Positions 15,035 through 41,946 of a stretch of DNA of 48,116 nucleotides are shown one piece after another. Made by a program: the position numbers and the translations under genes. The DNA is from Candidatus Phycocordibacter aenigmaticus. Lineage in GTDB: Bacteria; Patescibacteriota; Minisyncoccia; Phycocordibacterales; Phycocordibacteraceae. The notes beneath the pieces are model-generated. The model saw nothing but the letters and a program-made list of their open reading frames with translations, made no database searches and was not told the DNA's origin. Where the stretch lies: positions 1 to 48,116 of the forward strand of contig CP174359.1 of assembly GCA_045401115.1 (NCBI GenBank), given 5' to 3'. Within the stretch, counting starts at the first letter, position 1. Each line of letters begins with the position of its first letter.

Positions 15035-16060
15035 CTATACATCCTCTGAATCAGCCGTATCGTGATGTTTTTCTTTCTGCTCCTCTTCAAGTTTCTCTAA
15101 GAATTTAACGAGGGTATCTTGGGCGATTTTAAGGCGATCATCATCGATAGCGGAGACGGGAATAACCGAGGATCCTGAGCATGCTTCCAGCTCTTTGAGT
15201 TTTTCCTTCATCACTTCTTCTTCCACCTCATCTATTTTGGTAAGGAACACCATTTCCGGCTTCTCCAACAGCGCTTTATCGTAATCTGAAAGTTCATTAC
15301 GGATAGTGGTGTAGGTAGCGCACACATCTTCATTTTCAACGGAAACACAGTGTAAGAGTACACGAGTACGGGTAATGTGTCGTAAAAATGCATGACCAAG
15401 TCCCTTCCCTGTCGCAGCGCCTTCAATAAGGCCGGGAATGTCTGCAAGCACGAACCCAAACAACACACCAAGAGCCGGTTCAAGTGTCGTAAACGGATAG
15501 GCACCGACCTTGGCATTTCTGTTCGTAAAGGCATTCAAAAGTGTTGATTTGCCGGCGTTCGGCATACCCACGAAGCCAACGTCAGCGATAAGCCGCACTT
15601 CCACTTCGAGTGTCCCTGATTCACCATACTCACCTGGGATTGCTTTTTCGGGATACTGATTCGTTGATGATTTAAAGCGGGCGTTGCCATAGCCGCCGCG
15701 ACCACCTTTTAAAATGGTATGCTCCTCTCCTTCGACAGCAATATCCCATTCTCTTCCGGATTCAGTTTCTACTATACGAGACCCGACCGGCACATCAATG
15801 TATACCGGGACACCGTTCTTTCCTTCAAGTTCGTTCTTGGATCCGTCACCGCCGTCTTCAGCTTTAAATTCAGGGTTACCGCGGTAGCGTGACAGTATAT
15901 TCAAATCGCGTACCCCACGGAGAATTACATCACCACCGCGACCACCATCACCTCCTGCAGGCCCGCCAAAGGCTTTACTGCGCATGCGCAACCAGCGTAC
16001 GACACCGTCGCCGCCTTTACCTGCGGTCGCTTTGAGTGTTATTTCGTCTACAAATGCCAT
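15035..16060 (-). CDS. obgE: GTPase ObgE/CgtA
   Basis: FVDE...AGKGGDG, GGDGGRGGDV, ADVGFVGMPNAGKSTL, YPFTTL, ADIPGLIEGA, TKID motifs. Confidence 0.97.
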   Translation of the reverse strand: MAFVDEITLKATAGKGGDGVVRWLRMRSKAFGGPAGGDGGRGGDVILRGVRDLNILSRYRGNPEFKAEDGGDGSKNELEGKNGVPVYIDVPVGSRIVETESGREWDIAVEGEEHTILKGGRGGYGNARFKSSTNQYPEKAIPGEYGESGTLEVEVRLIADVGFVGMPNAGKSTLLNAFTNRNAKVGAYPFTTLEPALGVLFGFVLADIPGLIEGAATGKGLGHAFLRHITRTRVLLHCVSVENEDVCATYTTIRNELSDYDKALLEKPEMVFLTKIDEVEEEVMKEKLKELEACSGSSVIPVSAIDDDRLKIAQDTLVKFLEKLEEEQKEKHHDTADSEDV

Positions 16061-16065
16061 AAATT

Positions 16066-16220
16066 TAGTAAGTGGGAGGTGGAATGTGGTAAGTGGTTCA
16101 TGGGAAATAGAATGTGGTTAATAGTTAGAAGGTGGTAGGTGGTAAGTGGAAGGTGGTTAAGAGTTAGAAGGTAGAATGTGGTAGGTGGGAGGTAGAAGGT
16201 GGGAGGTGGTAAGTGGGGTG
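16066..16220. repeat. Degenerate heptamer tandem array (TRGNARG), ~21 units, filling the intergenic space between the four-helix-bundle gene and obgE
   Basis: TAGTAAG TGGGAGG TGGAATG TGGTAAG TGGTTCA TGGGAAA TAGAATG TGGTTAA (tagt) TAGAAGG TGGTAGG TGGTAAG TGGAAGG TGGTTAA (gagt) TAGAAGG TAGAATG TGGTAGG TGGGAGG TAGAAGG TGGGAGG TGGTAAG TGGGGTG. Confidence 0.93.
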
Positions 16221-16583
16221 TTATTTTAGTTTTTTGATGAGTGTACTTAACATTTTTTGTACAGAGGAAAGAGTGTCGTAAATAGGTTTAATATCCTTCC
16301 TATGATAGATCTGTTCCGCAAGAATGAGCTGTGTTTCCAATTCTGCGGCCGATCCGGCTGCAATACCCAGAAATCGCCTAAAATCCTTTTTACTTTCTCG
16401 TCTTGCACCCTCAGCAATATTAGACGGTATCGACACGGCGCACCGTCGCATCTGACTCACTAAACCATATTGCTCCTCTTGGGGCAAATCCTGCGTAAAA
16501 TCATATACCGCGGCTGCGAGCTCTATCGCAGACTGCCATACTCGCAAACTACGGAAGGCGCTCTGTACATTACCATCTTCCAT
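16221..16583 (-). CDS. Four helix bundle protein (23S rRNA intervening-sequence protein / Avd-like family)
   Basis: 120 aa with the family signature FRSLRVWQSAIEL...YGLVSQMRRCAVSIPSNIAEG...FRRFLGIAAGSAAELETQL. Confidence 0.95.
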   Translation of the reverse strand: MEDGNVQSAFRSLRVWQSAIELAAAVYDFTQDLPQEEQYGLVSQMRRCAVSIPSNIAEGARRESKKDFRRFLGIAAGSAAELETQLILAEQIYHRKDIKPIYDTLSSVQKMLSTLIKKLK

Positions 16584-16609
16584 ACTATATATTGTACCGC
16601 CTCATTTAA

Positions 16610-16680
16610 CTACTTTTGTAGTTTCCACCTTCTACTTCTGGTCTCTACATTCTACCTACTACTTTCTACCTACCATTCTG
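16610..16680. repeat. Heptamer array (~9 units) in inverted orientation, upstream of the four-helix-bundle and holin-family genes
   Basis: Reverse complement reads CAGAATG GTAGG TAGAAAG TAGTAGG TAGAATG TAGAGAC CAGAAG TAGAAGG TGGAAAC. Confidence 0.85.
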
Positions 16681-16693
16681 CTACAATAGGATT

Positions 16694-17026
16694 ATGAATA
16701 TCTTTTCGCGGTTTTTAGGGACAATACTTGCGCTTCTTTTAAGTGCCTACGTCATTGAAGGGTTCATTGTTGAGAGCCTTTATGCGGCGGCTATTGTGGC
16801 GGTAATGCTCGCTATTATAAATATTACACTGAAGCCAATAGTACTGTTGATTGCGCTGCCACTGCAGGTGCTCACACTCGGACTGTTTACATTTATTGTA
16901 AACGCGCTGTTCCTGCTCTTTGTGGCGAGCTTCGTACAAGGTTTTGCTATTGCGGGTTTTGTCCCTGCCCTCTTTGGCGCACTGGTTATCGCAGCGACAC
17001 TGTGGGTGCTTGATATCTTTTTCTAA
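16694..17026 (+). CDS. Phage holin family (4-TM, DUF360/YvlD-like) membrane protein
   Basis: 110 aa, four hydrophobic segments; motif N..LKPI...IALPL..LTLGLF..IVNA. Confidence 0.9.
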   Translation: MNIFSRFLGTILALLLSAYVIEGFIVESLYAAAIVAVMLAIINITLKPIVLLIALPLQVLTLGLFTFIVNALFLLFVASFVQGFAIAGFVPALFGALVIAATLWVLDIFF

Positions 17027-19704: not shown

Positions 19705-20007
19705 TTATCGCTTGCGGCGACGAGCTGTCTTCTTAGCAGGTTTACGCTTAGCAGCTTTCTTTGCTGCTGGCTTACGCTTCGCTGCTTTTTTAGCAGGTTT
19801 ACGCTTTGCCGCCTTCTTAGCTGGCTTTCGTTTTGCCGCCTTCTTAGCTGCTGGTTTTCGCTTTGCTGCTTTTTTTGCTGCTGGCTTACGCTTTGCAGTT
19901 TTCTTAGCAGGTTTGCGACGTGCAACTTTCTTTGCTGGCTTACGAGCTGCTGCCTTTTTAGCAGCTTTCTTAGGAGCTGCTTTTTTTGCTGTTCGACGTC
20001 GTTTCAT
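19705..20007 (-). CDS. Histone H1-like Lys/Ala/Arg/Pro-rich basic protein
   Basis: 100 aa made almost entirely of K(R)KP(A)AKKAA repeats. DNA repeats differ at synonymous positions. Followed by its own terminator. Confidence 0.82.
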   Translation of the reverse strand: MKRRRTAKKAAPKKAAKKAAARKPAKKVARRKPAKKTAKRKPAAKKAAKRKPAAKKAAKRKPAKKAAKRKPAKKAAKRKPAAKKAAKRKPAKKTARRRKR

Positions 20008-24449: not shown

Positions 24450-24471
24450 TGGGGAAATAATACCATAAGTG

Positions 24472-24613
24472 AGGTAAGTGGGAGGTGGGAGGTAATTTTG
24501 ATGGGAAATAAACGGCTCAGGGGGTGAGCCGTTCTTTTTGGGAGTTAAATGACGGACGTCCGACGTCCGTCATGTGGAAGAGTGCTATGTGCGGACGTCG
24601 GACGTCCGCACAT
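24472..24613. repeat. Composite element copy 1: heptamers + 30-nt hairpin + inverted palindrome doublet
   Basis: AGGTAAG TGGGAGG TGGGAGG (24472-24492); GGAAATAAACGGCTCAGGGGGTGAGCCGTT (24504-24533); ATGACGGACGTC-C-GACGTCCGTCAT (24549-24573); ATGTGCGGACGTC-G-GACGTCCGCACAT (24587-24613). Confidence 0.85.
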
Positions 24614-33779: not shown

Positions 33780-35215
33780 AATGAGATATTTTTTGTTGTT
33801 GCTTTCTTTAATAAAGTACCGAACTTACTAGCTGGAAGGACTGTTAGCTTTACAGATTCTTTTTCTATTTCCATAGAGACAATTTTCCCGAATCCTGTTT
33901 GGTACCACGGTAGAACCATAGTAACGGAATCGGTGAAAAAACGCCAAAGACGTACTATTGCTTCTCCAGCATGCCCACCGCGCAGTGCATACCAACTATG
34001 GTTTAACACCTCCTTTACACTGAAGAAATACGCATATGGAAGCCTTGGTATTTGAAAACGTAAACGATGCGCCGCGTCTAGACCGTTTTGGTAAATACCT
34101 GTTGTTGGATTTCTTTTTTGCCAGCGCGTGTTTATTAATATACGCCGCGCTTGGTTCGTATCGGAAAAGACTTCTTTTCCGTGGAATGTATACAAAAATG
34201 GCTGTAGTTCGTTTGCATGATTGAACATATCTTCGATACCATCGATGCGTGTGAGCCACGCAAGATGCGCTGTCCAAAAAATTGGACATTGAAAATTGAA
34301 ATTTAAACCTTTATGAGAATGTAGGAACCCATCAAAAAAATGTTGCCGTACTTGATACAGTACGTTATTCAGCGCTTTTTGCGCAATTGGATTTTTTGAA
34401 TGTGAAAGAGCGTATGCATCAAATGCGTGTGAAGCAACCTCATAAGAAGAGAGCCAGTACCAACGTTTACACTCCATACGGAGGTCTTTTATACCGTTGG
34501 AGTCGTACATTGAAAGAAGTGCGCCTATAGACGCCTCAAGTGCTTCTTCATACACACCCTCCTTTATATTAAGGGCATTGAGGGTGTACTGAGCAAACGC
34601 TGTGTGCCTTGATTGATAAAACGTAGTGATGTCGTCATATGGTAAAGAGTTTTTTGCTGGGTCAGGATAGTATCGAAAAAAACCATCTGGGGTTGCATCT
34701 TTAAAGGCACGTTCAATACTTTCATGAGCAATTGTCCGATACGCACTCTCCTCTCCCAAATAGCGCGCATATGATGCAAGTCCCGTAAGACCCCATAAAC
34801 GTTGGTTGGTTATTTTTTTACTGCGCGCGGTTTTCACAAGGTACCCTTCAGCCACTTCTCGAAGTGTTGTTTGTATTTTTTCATGCTCTTTTTTAGAAAA
34901 ACTGTCTCTGTTATTTGTGGCAAAACGCGCAACGGCGTCTACAGCGGTCCCTGTGTCAATGACATTTTGAGACATATTCATAGGGTTTAGATGACCTGGA
35001 TAGAATACTTTTGCGCCTTCAGGAGATTCAACAACAAGATCAAGTAAATACCACACAAACTTTTTTCCTTTTTCAATTTCTCCAAGATAATCATAAAAAT
35101 CTAACAAGTACGCATTGCTTCCTGTATGCTCCACACGGTGCTTCGGGCACGTACGATTTTTTTCGAGATATACCGCGGCTTCGCGGATCATATGTTTAAA
35201 AGTTATGAGCGGCAT
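33776..35215 (-). CDS. Hypothetical 479-aa protein in the glycan cluster (possibly alpha/alpha-toroid); alternative start at 35191
   Basis: Long ORF overlapping neighbouring genes at both ends; predicted helical and aromatic-rich; no family recognised. Confidence 0.75.
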   Translation of the reverse strand: MPLITFKHMIREAAVYLEKNRTCPKHRVEHTGSNAYLLDFYDYLGEIEKGKKFVWYLLDLVVESPEGAKVFYPGHLNPMNMSQNVIDTGTAVDAVARFATNNRDSFSKKEHEKIQTTLREVAEGYLVKTARSKKITNQRLWGLTGLASYARYLGEESAYRTIAHESIERAFKDATPDGFFRYYPDPAKNSLPYDDITTFYQSRHTAFAQYTLNALNIKEGVYEEALEASIGALLSMYDSNGIKDLRMECKRWYWLSSYEVASHAFDAYALSHSKNPIAQKALNNVLYQVRQHFFDGFLHSHKGLNFNFQCPIFWTAHLAWLTRIDGIEDMFNHANELQPFLYTFHGKEVFSDTNQARRILINTRWQKRNPTTGIYQNGLDAAHRLRFQIPRLPYAYFFSVKEVLNHSWYALRGGHAGEAIVRLWRFFTDSVTMVLPWYQTGFGKIVSMEIEKESVKLTVLPASKFGTLLKKATTKNISL

Positions 35216-36173
35216 ACACCTCTAGAATATTTGGGATTAGATGTTGGAGTGAATGATTTTTCTTTACGTACGTGTATAGGTCTTCAGTGTTTGTGTATGT
35301 AGGTGCACATACTGCACGTGACAGACTTTCGGTAGTCGGATCTGCAATAGTAACGGGCATGTCTGTGTAGGTTGGGTTAGTAGTTACAACTGGGCAACCA
35401 CAAGCAAGTGCCTCCAACACCACCTTATCAAGTGAGCCAGTCTCTGATGTGTGTACAAACATGGCAGCGCGGCGGTATTCATCCGGAAGGTCTTTATGAG
35501 AAAGGCCTGCTGGCATTTCGACTTTTGCGCCGAGCTTTTGCGCGAGTGCCGCGAGGCGCTCGCGCTCTTCCCCTTCCCCTATGATGCGCACCGGCTTCCT
35601 TGATGCAGCAGCCGCTTCTATCACTAGGTCATGCCGCTTGGTTTTCATTAAGCGGCCAACTGAGAGGAGATGCTCGGCGCGCTCCACTGTCGCGCCCGGA
35701 GTAAATACATCAACATCAATGCCGTGCCCCATGATCTGTACCTTTTTGGATTGAAGGCGGAAGCTCCCTGGTGTTGCGGTAAATATATGTTGCGCAAAAA
35801 CCTCAGCAAAGCGTAGCTTTAAATCAACACTTTTATGCATATACCACAGTCCGAGTGTTTTACCAGTGAGACGCCAAATCCAACCAGCAAGGACGATGTA
35901 CTCAGGATTCATATGTACAAAAACTCCATCGTATTCTCGATGTAGTTTGGAAAGTAGAAGGTAGAAGGTGGTAAGTTGTTGGAATTTGTTAGTTCCGCGC
36001 TCTTTACCGAGTGAGTGCACGGTGACATTTTTCGGCAGATCGTAATCCCCTGTTTGGAGCGCAATGACGTGAATATGTTCAGCGTTCTTTGCGAACTCAA
36101 CCAGCCACCTATGAAAAAAACCGAGTATCGGGTGGTTTCTATCGACAACTTGGGTGATGATTAATAATTTCAT
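35196..36173 (-). CDS. Glycosyltransferase family 4
   Basis: LSVGRL..TKRH, TGSLDKVVLEALACG motifs. Confidence 0.92.
   Translation of the reverse strand: MKLLIITQVVDRNHPILGFFHRWLVEFAKNAEHIHVIALQTGDYDLPKNVTVHSLGKERGTNKFQQLTTFYLLLSKLHREYDGVFVHMNPEYIVLAGWIWRLTGKTLGLWYMHKSVDLKLRFAEVFAQHIFTATPGSFRLQSKKVQIMGHGIDVDVFTPGATVERAEHLLSVGRLMKTKRHDLVIEAAAASRKPVRIIGEGEERERLAALAQKLGAKVEMPAGLSHKDLPDEYRRAAMFVHTSETGSLDKVVLEALACGCPVVTTNPTYTDMPVTIADPTTESLSRAVCAPTYTNTEDLYTYVKKNHSLQHLIPNILEVYAAHNF
35948..35975. repeat. Four heptamer units inside a glycosyltransferase CDS
   Basis: TGGAAAG TAGAAGG TAGAAGG TGGTAAG; encodes (Q)LTTFYLLLS(K) on the minus strand. Confidence 0.75.
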
Positions 36174-36177
36174 ATTT

Positions 36178-36233
36178 TAGTAAGTGGTAGGTGGAAAGTG
36201 GAAGGTGGTTAAGGGAATGCAAGAAATGGGAAA
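36178..36233. repeat. Heptamer array (~8 units) ending 4 nt before the ATG at 36173
   Basis: TAGTAAG TGGTAGG TGGAAAG TGGAAGG TGGTTAA GGGAATG CAAGAAA TGGGAAA. Confidence 0.88.
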
Positions 36234-36715: not shown

Positions 36716-37316
36716 TGTTTTTTATTAATTGTTCTAACTCGTCGAAGGAGGTGACAGTCGGCACAGAGCCGATGCCGGGGTTGCCGTCGCGACGCATTTC
36801 ATACACAGCGACGTCAGGACACTCCTCTTTAACTGCAAGGAGTTGTGAGTCGTGGTCGTCGATGAAAAAATAAGGACCGTCATATTTTTTTATTAACGCA
36901 GCAACTTCACTTCCTTTTGTGGCGCCGCCGGCAAGCGGTATGTTAGATACTGCCTGCACAATAGCGAATACTCCTGACGCTTCTAGTTTTGCTTTTTGAT
37001 ATGACGGGCACGCGCGGTTGGCGGTCACAATAACTGAATGTTCCCCGTGTATATCGAGAAATTTTTGTGCGTCGGGATACACATACTGCGCGTATTCACC
37101 TGGATCAAGTGTTATAAGCCCTTCGGTAAACAACCGCTCTAACTCACGAGATACTTCAGCACGCCGCGGATTGTTTAAGTTAAATTTTTCAGCTCCCAAC
37201 ATCACTTCGTCAAACAACTCTTTCACGTCAGGCACTACAGTGAGTTTGTTTGAAAGATACTGATATGAGCGATAGGTATCAAAGAGGGTTCGGTCGAAGT
37301 CGATAAAGAAGGTCAT
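36705..37316 (-). CDS. HAD-superfamily hydrolase
   Basis: FFIDFDRTLFDT motif I; TKG; FFIDDH motif IV. Confidence 0.85.
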   Translation of the reverse strand: MTFFIDFDRTLFDTYRSYQYLSNKLTVVPDVKELFDEVMLGAEKFNLNNPRRAEVSRELERLFTEGLITLDPGEYAQYVYPDAQKFLDIHGEHSVIVTANRACPSYQKAKLEASGVFAIVQAVSNIPLAGGATKGSEVAALIKKYDGPYFFIDDHDSQLLAVKEECPDVAVYEMRRDGNPGIGSVPTVTSFDELEQLIKNNGS

Positions 37317-37320
37317 AAAT

Positions 37321-37362
37321 TAGTAGGTGGTAGATAGAAGGTGGAAAGTGGTTAGTGGAAGA
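37321..37362. repeat. Heptamer array (6 units) between the two HAD genes
   Basis: TAGTAGG TGGTAGA TAGAAGG TGGAAAG TGGTTAG TGGAAGA; ends 4 nt before ATG 37316. Confidence 0.9.
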
Positions 37363-40639: not shown

Positions 40640-41772
40640 ATATGTTTAAAGAACATAGCAGTTTCTTCCACCATGCGGGCTATAGAAAATCGGTCTACCC
40701 TATTTTTTGCATTTCCTGCTAAGCGTGCGCGACTTTCGGGAGCGTTGAGCAATTTCTCTATGCGGTGTGTGAGCGTTTTAGTATCGTTCGGCTTTACCAG
40801 GTAGCCATGTACGTTGTCTTCAATAAGTTCAGGATTACCTCCCACTTTGGTGGTGATGATCGGCACGCCCACCGACGCCGCTTCAAGAAGAAGGTGTGAG
40901 AAGCCTTCGTAGCGGGTATTGAGCACGAACACGTCGGCCGCACGCATGTAGCGGAGTGCTACGGCACGATCTACATTGCCGGTAAATACTACAGAATCCG
41001 CAACACCGAGGTCTTCCGAAAGAGCGACAAGGCGGTCCATCTCGGGGCCGTCGCCGACAATGAGAAGGCGCAAGTCAGGAATACGCTTGCAGAGTTCTGC
41101 GTGAATGCGGATGAGCGTGTCAAAGCCTTTCCACGGCACCAGGCGGCTGACTGAAATGACCAACTTGCCTTTAAATTTAAGAAGACCGCGGATGACTTGT
41201 TTAAGTCCGACAGGTTCTATATCAACGCCATTGTAGATAACGGAGATACGTTTTCGCTCTACTCCCCACTCGCGTACGATTTTACCGAGGTATTTGCTGG
41301 GTACTATCACCTTTACGGCTTGCCGGGCTACCCACCGTTCGAGGGTGCGCATGATGCGAATGAGGAGAGGAAGAGTGGTGTCTTTTTGAAATTCTTCAAC
41401 TGTTTTTGTATAGCGAAATCTACCACCTGCCTGTTCCCACGCATAATCACCCACCATTTTAAGTACAAACGGTTTACGCATGAGTTTTGCTGCGAGTGCC
41501 GACGGAAGGCCGACTGAGATAGGATCTTGAGCATACACTACATTCGGTTTGAATTTGTGGATACGTGCCACTGTTTTGAAAAAATATGCCAGATGCCGTA
41601 GGAATTTTGGATAGCCACGCACTTCACGATACGGAAGCACCGATACACTAAAGCCATAAGCTGGTAAGCGCTCTAGGAGTGTTTTGGAATAGGTCGCTGG
41701 ACCACCCCCTTCAGGTGGGAAAAGCCCCGTAGCTATGAGTATTTTTTTACCTTGAGATGATTTTTGTACCAT
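40636..41772 (-). CDS. Glycosyltransferase family 4
   Basis: ATGLFPPEGGGPATY, SVSRLVPWKG, EGFSHLLLEA motifs. Confidence 0.94.
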   Translation of the reverse strand: MVQKSSQGKKILIATGLFPPEGGGPATYSKTLLERLPAYGFSVSVLPYREVRGYPKFLRHLAYFFKTVARIHKFKPNVVYAQDPISVGLPSALAAKLMRKPFVLKMVGDYAWEQAGGRFRYTKTVEEFQKDTTLPLLIRIMRTLERWVARQAVKVIVPSKYLGKIVREWGVERKRISVIYNGVDIEPVGLKQVIRGLLKFKGKLVISVSRLVPWKGFDTLIRIHAELCKRIPDLRLLIVGDGPEMDRLVALSEDLGVADSVVFTGNVDRAVALRYMRAADVFVLNTRYEGFSHLLLEAASVGVPIITTKVGGNPELIEDNVHGYLVKPNDTKTLTHRIEKLLNAPESRARLAGNAKNRVDRFSIARMVEETAMFFKHI

Positions 41773-41813: not shown

Positions 41814-41943
41814 CGGGAAATAGAAGGTGAAAAGTGGGAGGTGGTAGGTAGTTAATGGTAAGTGGAAGGTGGTAGGTAGAAGGTGGAAATAAACGGCTCA
41901 GGGGGTGAGCCGTTTATGTGTAGCGAGGACCGACCTCGCTACA
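41814..41943. repeat. Composite element copy 2: ~11 heptamers + identical 30-nt hairpin + GAGG-ACCGA-CCTC palindrome
   Basis: CGGGAAA TAGAAGG TGAAAAG TGGGAGG TGGTAGG TAGTTAA TGGTAAG TGGAAGG TGGTAGG TAGAAGG TGGAAAT; 41885-41914 is identical to 24504-24533; TGTAGCGAGG accga CCTCGCTACA (41919-41943). Confidence 0.88.
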
Positions 41944-41946
41944 ACT

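Follow-up and report, generated by a model that had tools for sequence, protein, structure and literature searches.

A PF05635 four-helix-bundle gene nested between inverted heptamer arrays at the holin/obgE junction of Candidatus Phycocordibacter aenigmaticus

Why does the gene for a small four-helix-bundle (4HB) protein of 120 aa lie between two inverted arrays of a degenerate heptamer, one of which occupies the whole leader of obgE? We have investigated this question in Candidatus Phycocordibacter aenigmaticus, in a stretch of 48,116 nucleotides (referred to as the window) that comprises the first 48 kb of a 98%-complete, single-contig genome of 721,362 bp and 44% G+C (CP174359.1, assembly GCA_045401115.1). 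The bracketed architecture recurs at homologous genes in relatives and in other phyla, and arrays of the same 7-nt period are nearly confined, among relatives, to genomes carrying a gene of the family. The interpretation we favour, which we consider about equally likely to be right or wrong, is that a widespread module of three parts is represented at this locus, one resembling the intervening sequences (IVSs) of 23S rRNA but in an operon setting, in which a ring-forming protein would be the reader of phased heptads.

The 4HB gene (16221..16583, minus strand) is assigned to PF05635 (23S_rRNA_IVP) and TIGR02436 by Pfam and NCBIfam profile matches (E=1.4e-36, 125.4 bits against a cut-off of 33.8, and E=1.1e-37, 128.6 bits against a cut-off of 24, respectively). 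NF008911 is also matched (138.1 bits, cut-off 137), and PF05635 is the sole match in the Pfam search. The motifs GxxRxxxSxxxNxxE and GSxxELxTQ are present, as expected of a member of the profile family, and residues G40, R47, S51, N55 and E58 together with G77, S78, E81, L82, T84 and Q85 are invariant in the alignment of homologues. Membership of the four-helix-bundle family, proposed in a first-pass annotation of this DNA, is therefore borne out. Among solved structures the nearest is that of XCC0516 from Xanthomonas campestris (PDB 2GSC, E=5.5e-23), a protein described in print as a homopentamer of four-helix bundles. A profile search detects a single PF05635 copy in the whole genome.

Both flanks of the gene consist of the heptamer TRGNARG, in opposite orientation. 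The 3' arm (16066..16220, plus strand; 152-155 nt with a single C) comprises ~21-22 units and on the 4HB sense strand reads CYTNCYA, which is G-free. It fills the entire spacer, the final unit lying 1 base from the 4HB stop codon (TAA, 16221-16223, minus strand) and the first unit 5 nt from the ATG (16058-16060) of the codirectional downstream gene obgE (15035..16060, minus strand; Pfam GTP1_OBG, 7.8e-43), and thus constitutes the whole obgE leader in the window. Autocorrelation within this arm is 0.64, 0.60, 0.59 and 0.56 at lags 7, 14, 21 and 28, respectively, compared with ~0.2-0.4 at the remaining lags, and its length is exceptional, ~21 units versus the 4-5 typical of cassette arms. The 5' arm (16625..16679) is made of ~8 degenerate TRGNARG-family units, 5-6 of them conforming to the pattern, and has a lag-7 identity of 0.44. 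Here TRGNARG is read on the 4HB sense (minus) strand, and on the plus strand the arm forms a C-rich leader ending 14-18 nt before the ATG of a gene for a PF04020 holin-family membrane protein with four transmembrane segments (16694..17026, plus strand; Pfam, 2.2e-23). Between the 5' arm and the 4HB start codon lies a spacer of 41 nt (16584..16624, minus strand) with a local palindrome, AACTAC-TTTT-GTAGTT, that forms a local hairpin in the minimum free energy (MFE) fold. Three consecutive TRGNARG units with at most 2 mismatches are matched 33 times in the window, compared with 0.07 expected from shuffles, and the two arms are complementary over 28 nt at 82%. The first-pass annotation had described ~21 heptamers filling the 3' intergenic space from the stop codon, which the coordinates and autocorrelation confirm, and was also correct in naming this array the largest in the window and the arms its sole inverted pair. 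It had counted ~9 inverted units upstream; an inverted array of the same family is indeed present, with ~8 units, but is the weaker of the two.

Is this arrangement peculiar to the locus? PF05635 genes are observed in 19 of 40 genomes of the same genus and order, and ~20 of the 29 PF05635 loci in these relatives possess arms of 21-33 nt, 73-97% complementary, 350-450 nt apart and tight to the open reading frame (ORF). The arm unit differs from cassette to cassette (GAGTTYA, AGCTTTW, AGGGTTT, AGGTNCT, AGTTNTT, TGAATTA, TAGTGAG, TAGTAAG), the arms of the TAGTGAG cassette being 33 nt long and 97% complementary. Relatives' cassettes are found between codirectional housekeeping genes, such as pheS/pheT in two genomes and before murG in another, with arms filling the spacers fully. 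The fourth 4HB gene of genome G014 (L149 130-200 and 540-610; G014:C1:656030-656510) has an arm unit of 9 nt (TAGAGANNN) instead of 7.

The survey was widened by an alignment-based scan of one genome per species, yielding 80 further loci from Bacteroidota, Patescibacteria, Gammaproteobacteria, Firmicutes, Planctomycetota, Cloacimonadota, Desulfobacterota, Acidimicrobiia and Methanophagales. These are the best matches to an alignment centred on the Candidate Phyla Radiation (CPR), and it is to them that the armed fraction of 58-70% refers. The PF05635/TIGR02436 family itself is very large, 7979 of 8000 scored candidates being homologues. Flanks were scored by Smith-Waterman alignment of 110 nt upstream against the reverse complement of 110 nt downstream, for 111 non-redundant 4HB genes and, as controls, 160 other ORFs from these loci. 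The 4HB genes have a median score of 25 and the other ORFs one of 14 (Mann-Whitney p=6e-26), and a score of at least 24 is reached by 58% of the former and 4% of the latter, the four top-scoring control ORFs proving to be 4HB genes themselves. Lag-7 identity of the upstream and downstream flanks is 0.415 and 0.401 in 4HB genes compared with 0.286 and 0.292 in controls, with echoes at lags 14 and 21. The 5' and 3' flanks are 7-nt periodic in 67% and 43% of 4HB genes, respectively, versus 9% and 10% of controls; of 93 periodic flanks, 76 are best described by period 7, and period 8 appears now and then. The enrichment of inverted period-7 arrays at homologues, which the first-pass annotation had proposed as a check, is thus strong in the CPR and in other phyla.

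The arms also share a composition and a core. On the sense strand 5' arms are G-rich and C-poor (28% G, 7% C), 3' arms showing the reverse. TAG occurs in 52% of arm consensus units compared with 20% expected and CAG in 17% compared with 5%, and the YAG core in 68% compared with 24%. The modal arm length is 5 units, followed by 4. Of 110 upstream neighbours, 100 are codirectional with the 4HB gene, as are 83 of 106 downstream neighbours; the median spacers are ~45 nt. An orthologous cassette in four Flavobacteriales genera has kept TAGAAGT/TAGATAT units, the ORF being 72-88% identical and the flanking proteins 57-85%.

Arrays are not limited to the flanks of 4HB genes, and their distribution among genomes follows that of the gene. 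The window's genome contains one PF05635 gene and about a dozen TRGNARG-family arrays, the two arms plus ~10 more, hereafter solo arrays. In 41 genomes probed, TRGNARG is matched 40 times in G000, 23 in G014, 13 in G002, 10 in G027, 8 in G020 and 7 in G003; TAGGGTT 78 times in G006, 42 in G017 and 10 in G014; and AGSTNCT 56 times in G017, 37 in G014, 12 in G039, 10 in G006, 9 in G020 and 5 in G002. All nine array-rich genomes carry PF05635 genes, and each of the 22 genomes that do not has at most 4 matches per pattern. The window's genome contains TRGNARG alone of the three families, which is the family of its single cassette. A count irrespective of unit family, based on at least 68% identity at the lag across four units, detects 83 period-7 arrays in genomes where the gene is present (1341 kb examined) and 4 where it is absent (973 kb), all four in G029, a ~15-fold difference in density. 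Within the same genus alone the numbers are 76 in 1241 kb and 0 in 315 kb. As an internal control, arrays of period 5 (18 versus 13) and period 6 (18 versus 19) are alike in the same 1341 and 973 kb. Arrays are therefore not equally common in relatives lacking the gene, which was one of the outcomes that the first-pass annotation had set up as adverse to its proposal; they are ~15 times rarer there. Furthermore, dispersed arrays tend to match the resident arms, 56% in G004, 43% in G027 and 38% in G000 lying within 1 mismatch of a resident arm compared with 5-7% for the arms of other genomes. The same annotation had proposed testing whether the genome-wide heptamer family co-varies with the protein sequence. 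A Mantel test of protein and heptamer gives a correlation (r=-0.137, p=0.004) that is real but that common descent alone would produce, and which does not decide the matter.

Combined, these observations are consistent with the following mechanism. The module consists of a PF05635 gene nested between two convergent arrays of a cassette-specific heptamer phased on the YAG core, here TRGNARG, set into a junction at which, in most relatives, the holin-family gene directly abuts obgE, and would represent an operon-borne counterpart of the ORF-bearing 23S rRNA IVS. Judging by the prevalent codirectionality, it may be transcribed together with its neighbours. In the transcript, the G-rich 5' arm and the C-rich 3' arm could pair in many registers to generate a long stem enclosing the ORF, of the kind cut by RNase III in the Coxiella IVS, and similar processing may be predicted here. 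The MFE fold of the cassette RNA contains 58 long-range pairs between the 5' and 3' arms, and the arm duplex has an energy of -62.5 kcal/mol compared with -41.8 +/- 5.3 when the arms are shuffled. The ring-forming protein, probably the reader of phased heptads, would recognise about five per arm, possibly one per protomer of the pentamer. Its sites would be the arms of its own cassette and, elsewhere in the genome, those solo arrays of the family that stand immediately 5' of a start codon, where an effect on expression of the array-bearing genes may be expected. The G-free 3' arm would in addition double as leader of the downstream gene, in a genome without a Shine-Dalgarno system. The first-pass suggestion of a stand-alone protein/repeat system is supported by the architecture, by the co-occurrence and by the lack of a reverse transcriptase in the genome.

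Several results weigh against this interpretation. The armed fraction given above derives from the 80 best matches to a CPR-centred alignment. In G014 only 18% of arrays match a resident arm, versus 9% for the arms of other genomes, and dozens of arrays in many unit families coexist with only four 4HB genes, which argues against a strict specificity of one protein for one heptamer. G029 has its four arrays (one at L186 9518-9554) with no PF05635 gene detected; the arrays in this genome and in G037 could be relics, or their partner could be a divergent gene. Of the solo arrays near starts in five genomes, 31 have the C-rich strand as sense and 7 the G-rich one, so their usual sense strand differs from that of the 5' arm, and a strand-specific RNA reader could not bind both. 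Tests of pairing are likewise unfavourable. Arm mismatches display no excess of G:U over A:C (55 versus 66) and the duplex energies of sense and antisense arms are equal, such that pairing in the sense RNA is not specifically supported. The mirror order of units is no better than in unit-shuffled arms (0 of 27 cassettes at 0.05), a test with low power where units are alike, and exact conservation of a stem is thus not supported. The complementarity of the arms follows from the shared unit family and need not have been selected as a stem.

The pairing results also bear on an explanation by structure only, in which the arrays are intergenic hairpins resembling repetitive extragenic palindromic (REP) elements, processing, stabilising, terminating or insulating transcripts independently of the gene, and the 4HB ORF is a passenger that settled or survived in the loop, as in 23S rRNA helices, and reads nothing. 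We consider this explanation rather unlikely. In its favour, convergent hairpins with no gene inside, built from the same unit families, occur between codirectional genes in G014 and G017, where they are numerous (for example before dnaJ, rplS and pth), and in G008 (holin/obgE), and arrays far outnumber genes in G014 and G017. The rpmH-rnpA operon of G017 (L147 200-700; G017:C4:140500-141000) has heptamer-array hairpins in both spacers around rnpA; with a hairpin at each successive junction, an ordinary gene can appear bracketed. Gene-less paired tandem hepta- or octamer sites are known in Geobacter and Xanthomonas, and the IVS stem is cut by RNase III, the authors of the Coxiella study giving more weight to the RNA than to the protein (PMC4990558). 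A stem, however, requires neither a 7-nt period nor a conserved YAG core nor a fixed number of 4-5 units, the arms are not mirror-ordered and show no tolerance of G:U, and many arrays are solo and cannot form a hairpin. The near absence of arrays from gene-less relatives is also unexpected for independent host elements. Unit family, 7-nt phase, YAG core and unit number are all conserved, and a protein that recognises phased heptads would account for this better than a stem by itself, the presumably pentameric 4HB protein being the candidate reader.

A function of the arms as three-frame stop insulators was considered and rejected. Stops in all three frames are present in 62% of 5' arms read inward compared with 24% of controls, and TAG density is 4.7% compared with 1.3%; CAG-core units are also common (at the frequencies given above) and TAA and TGA are barely enriched, and we regard the stops as a by-product of the YAG core.

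The holin/obgE junction itself provides a series of filled, empty and variant sites. The holin-family gene, divergent in the window, is codirectional with and directly 5' of obgE in most relatives, and in at least 10 genomes of the genus it ends 0-40 nt before the obgE ATG with no array, so that the empty sites for which the first-pass annotation had called do exist. Since obgE lacks an array where the holin-family gene abuts it, the array before obgE in the window is not a leader that obgE had ancestrally, but a part of the inserted module. Other occupants are found at the same junction. Two further loci contain another 4HB cassette there (L027 and L010), with a phosphoribosyltransferase-like gene between cassette and obgE in L010. 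In L020 (G008, ~1390-1500) the holin-family gene and obgE are separated precisely by a hairpin of inverted ATACGAAT/ATTCGTAT arrays that contains no gene and looks like an ORF-free version of the cassette, and in L028 (G037, ~1390-1500) there is a G-poor heptamer array in a genome with no PF05635 gene detected. In L004 (2500-3740; G001, same genus) the junction holds a 224-aa gene resembling REP-associated tyrosine transposases (RAYTs) and IS200, flanked by copies of the palindrome ATATGGACACGGCGTGTCCATAT, and the holin-family gene is inverted as in the window.

These sites, together with loci L090 and L091, whose ORFs are 77% identical in unrelated flanks, suggest that the cassette may be mobile. 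In the strong form of this idea, gene and arms would make up a minimal transposon-like or homing element that is selfish, the arrays being its ends and the solo arrays and hairpins footprints of insertion or excision. Multiple binding sites per element end are a feature of Tn7 and Mu, which provide a model for arrays as ends. Cassettes are present at many junctions (pheS/pheT, before murG, before obgE), and the resident family is also represented by solo arrays scattered over the genome, both as expected. Against this stands a helical protein of 120 aa devoid of a recognisable catalytic domain, in a genome without a reverse transcriptase; no target-site duplication is seen; and near-identical copies are absent within a genome, paralogues being ~50% identical with different arms. 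A search for 4HB pseudogene remnants beside solo arrays found none (best E=0.09). In addition, orthologous cassettes are kept across genera with a conservation near that of their neighbours, which indicates vertical retention. A selfish element of this type is in our view improbable.

Could the arrays simply be leaders of the flanking genes, the 4HB gene being there by coincidence? Most arrays in the genome precede a start codon by 4-48 nt, and their sense strand is the C-rich, G-free one. The starts so fronted are those of obgE (5 nt), the holin-family gene (14-18 nt) and the genes starting at 36173, 37316, 41772 and 659743. The solo TRGNARG-family arrays revealed in the window by a pattern scan, all on the plus strand, lie at 24465..24512; at 35943..35982, inside a long minus-strand ORF (35196-36173); at 36178..36212, 4 nt 5' of the start of that same gene with the C-rich strand as sense; at 37321..37362, filling the spacer of two minus-strand genes 4 nt 5' of the start at 37316; and at 41821..41890, with ~9 units 48 nt 5' of the start at 41772, preceded on the sense strand by terminator-like and REP-like hairpins. 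The array at 35943-35982 is 200 nt from the one in the leader of ORF 35196-36173, and either is an in-frame coding array or places the true start downstream of it. The REP-like hairpin, GTAGCGAGGTCGGTCCTCGCTAC (window 41890-41945; genome 102790-102860), recurs beside heptamer arrays, and the terminator-like hairpin, AAACGGCTCAGGGGGTGAGCCGTTT at 41890-41920, adjoins it. A similar bias of position is displayed by TAACTGA repeats in Beggiatoaceae. The alternative raised in the first-pass annotation, that the upstream array is simply oriented relative to the holin-family gene, fits in that the C-rich strand is sense just before the holin ATG, but it leaves the family-wide bracket unexplained. As an account of the whole locus coincidence is very improbable, since obgE has no such leader where the holin-family gene abuts it and the bracket is specific to the 4HB family across phyla (58% versus 4%).

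The start-adjacent arrays are found in a genome that lacks a Shine-Dalgarno system. The 3' end of 16S rRNA (genome C1:61785-61840) is GGATCATTTCCATG, compared with GGATCACCTCCTTA in E. coli. The CCUCC anti-Shine-Dalgarno has thus been lost, and GGAGG occurs before only 3 of 751 ORFs. Shine-Dalgarno pairing thus plays no part here, which is why the idea that CCACCTCC units mimic the anti-Shine-Dalgarno was rejected. Start contexts have T at -1 in 56% and are A-rich from -13 to -5.

Two other repetitive regions of the window were noted. A tandem repeat of 27/30/114 nt (TTCTTAGCTGGCTTACGCTTTGCAGCT...) at 19730-19966, with a Tandem Repeats Finder score of up to 296, may be a repetitive coding segment. 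Between 1962 and 8268, a 15-mer doublet, CGGTGAGCGTGACGC, and other short repeats recur at ~1-kb spacing (1962, 2802, 3765 and 6036), which suggests a large gene or a gene array made of repeated modules.

To which known system does the locus come closest? The 23S rRNA IVS of Coxiella burnetii contains an S23p (PF05635) ORF in the loop of a 28-bp stem, with 2-3 tandem GACAGAT heptamers just 5' of the ORF in strain-variable copy number; RNase III cuts within the stem, and the IVS has long been suspected to be the remnant of a mobile element (Warrier et al. 2016, PMC4990558). ORF-bearing IVSs are also recorded in Leptospira (Ralph & McClelland 1993, as cited in PMC3936711 and PMC4990558). The likeness is that a gene of the same family is situated in the loop of terminal inverted repeats with tandem heptamers 5' of the ORF, in an IVS element of ~430-450 nt. 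In contrast, the window's element lies between protein-coding genes and not in an rRNA helix, its arms are degenerate arrays of ~8 and ~21 units instead of a near-perfect 28-bp stem, and its heptamer family occurs at ~10 other places in the genome. A location in rRNA was rejected on the position of the element between obgE and the holin-family gene and on the lack of an rRNA match at any of 140 homologous loci (0/140). The 16S gene is at 61.8 kb and the rRNA operon at ~56-63 kb, outside the window. As all of the IVS architecture except the 23S rRNA location is present, we class the element as an operon-borne variant and not as an IVS.

The partnership of REPs, or of the REP-derived REPINs, with RAYTs is similar in that a single-copy gene is flanked by inverted short repeats that are also dispersed between genes of the same genome, that repeat and gene co-occur across genomes (with G029 as exception) and that repeat families differ between variants of the gene. 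It differs in that the 4HB protein is a 120-aa helical bundle with only PF05635 matches and not an HUH/Y1 nuclease, and in that the repeat is a tandem 7-mer and not a palindrome of fixed sequence. We know of no dispersal activity for the repeats of 4HB cassettes.

The arrays themselves resemble published ones. TAACTGA arrays occur in Beggiatoaceae, Cyanobacteria and Bacteroidetes, mostly just 5' of start codons (PMC4679880). GGGAATC in Xanthomonas and GGGGAYT in Nostoc include ~70 convergent pairs, and an excess of heptameric repeats is reported for bacterial genomes (PMC4692102). For Geobacter metallireducens, tandem hepta- and octamers that occur in pairs within operons, between the genes, were ascribed to "unidentified global regulators" (PMC2700814). 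Common to these and to the window are intergenic tandem 7-mers with an orientation bias, often adjacent to starts and often in convergent pairs between operon genes. The three papers name no partner protein and make no link to PF05635, and the unit sequences differ. The position and orientation of the TAACTGA type are reproduced here, at 4-48 nt from six starts, but the unit is TRGNARG. PF05635 genes have been noticed inside cas loci (PMC3936711), and a search of full-text literature retrieved no paper linking the PF05635 family with heptamer arrays outside rRNA. The idea that PF05635 belongs to the HEPN superfamily was dropped, as the HEPN survey paper does not mention it.

Avd, the accessory protein of diversity-generating retroelements (DGRs), and the homopentameric XCC0516 belong to the fold family of the 4HB protein. 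The partner of Avd is a reverse transcriptase-RNA complex and not heptamer arrays, and neither a reverse transcriptase nor template and variable repeats are present at the locus. A DGR remnant with the 4HB gene as its Avd can be dismissed, even though PF05635 is the Pfam family most resembling Avd, as the whole 721-kb genome yields no match to the reverse transcriptase profile RVT_1 (PF00078) in a profile search and, in place of a template/variable repeat pair, only 7-nt tandem arrays. The first-pass observation that the window has neither a reverse transcriptase nor an rRNA gene is thus correct, and for the reverse transcriptase it extends to the entire genome. For a ring that reads phased units TRAP may serve as a working analogy. 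It is an 11-mer ring of beta-sandwich subunits that reads (G/U)AG triplets, one per subunit, at a spacing of 5-6 nt, near start codons; its fold is unrelated and its spacing differs.

What, then, does the locus contribute? To our knowledge PF05635/TIGR02436 has had no known function beyond the accessory role of Avd in DGRs. The locus ties the 4HB family to heptamer arrays through flanks made of inverted copies of its own heptamer, near-confinement of arrays to gene carriers and a layout of the IVS type, and offers a testable ligand for the protein, namely phased YAG heptads. The new elements are mainly the genome-level co-occurrence, the empty-site series and the pairing tests. The window adds a single junction that is filled, empty or variant in different genomes, a link of arrays and gene within a genus, arms that share a unit family and not an exact stem, and a G-free 3' arm that is the entire leader of an essential GTPase gene, obgE, in a genome without an anti-Shine-Dalgarno. 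It likewise offers testable RNA biology in a candidate RNase III stem between cistrons and in G-free leaders in such a genome. More tentatively, and on balance we doubt it, PF05635 pentamers may be the cognate readers that bacterial heptamer arrays have so far lacked, with about five YAG-phased heptads bound per ring in a partnership like that of REPINs and RAYTs, which would have colonised the stop/start junctions of operons as well as rRNA helices; here, without Shine-Dalgarno pairing, the targets of the protein and of the G-rich 5' arm of the single cassette would be the C-rich arrays right before obgE and about six other starts. If this were true, it would provide a function for a very large family and would explain the excess of heptamers in bacterial genomes (PMC4692102).

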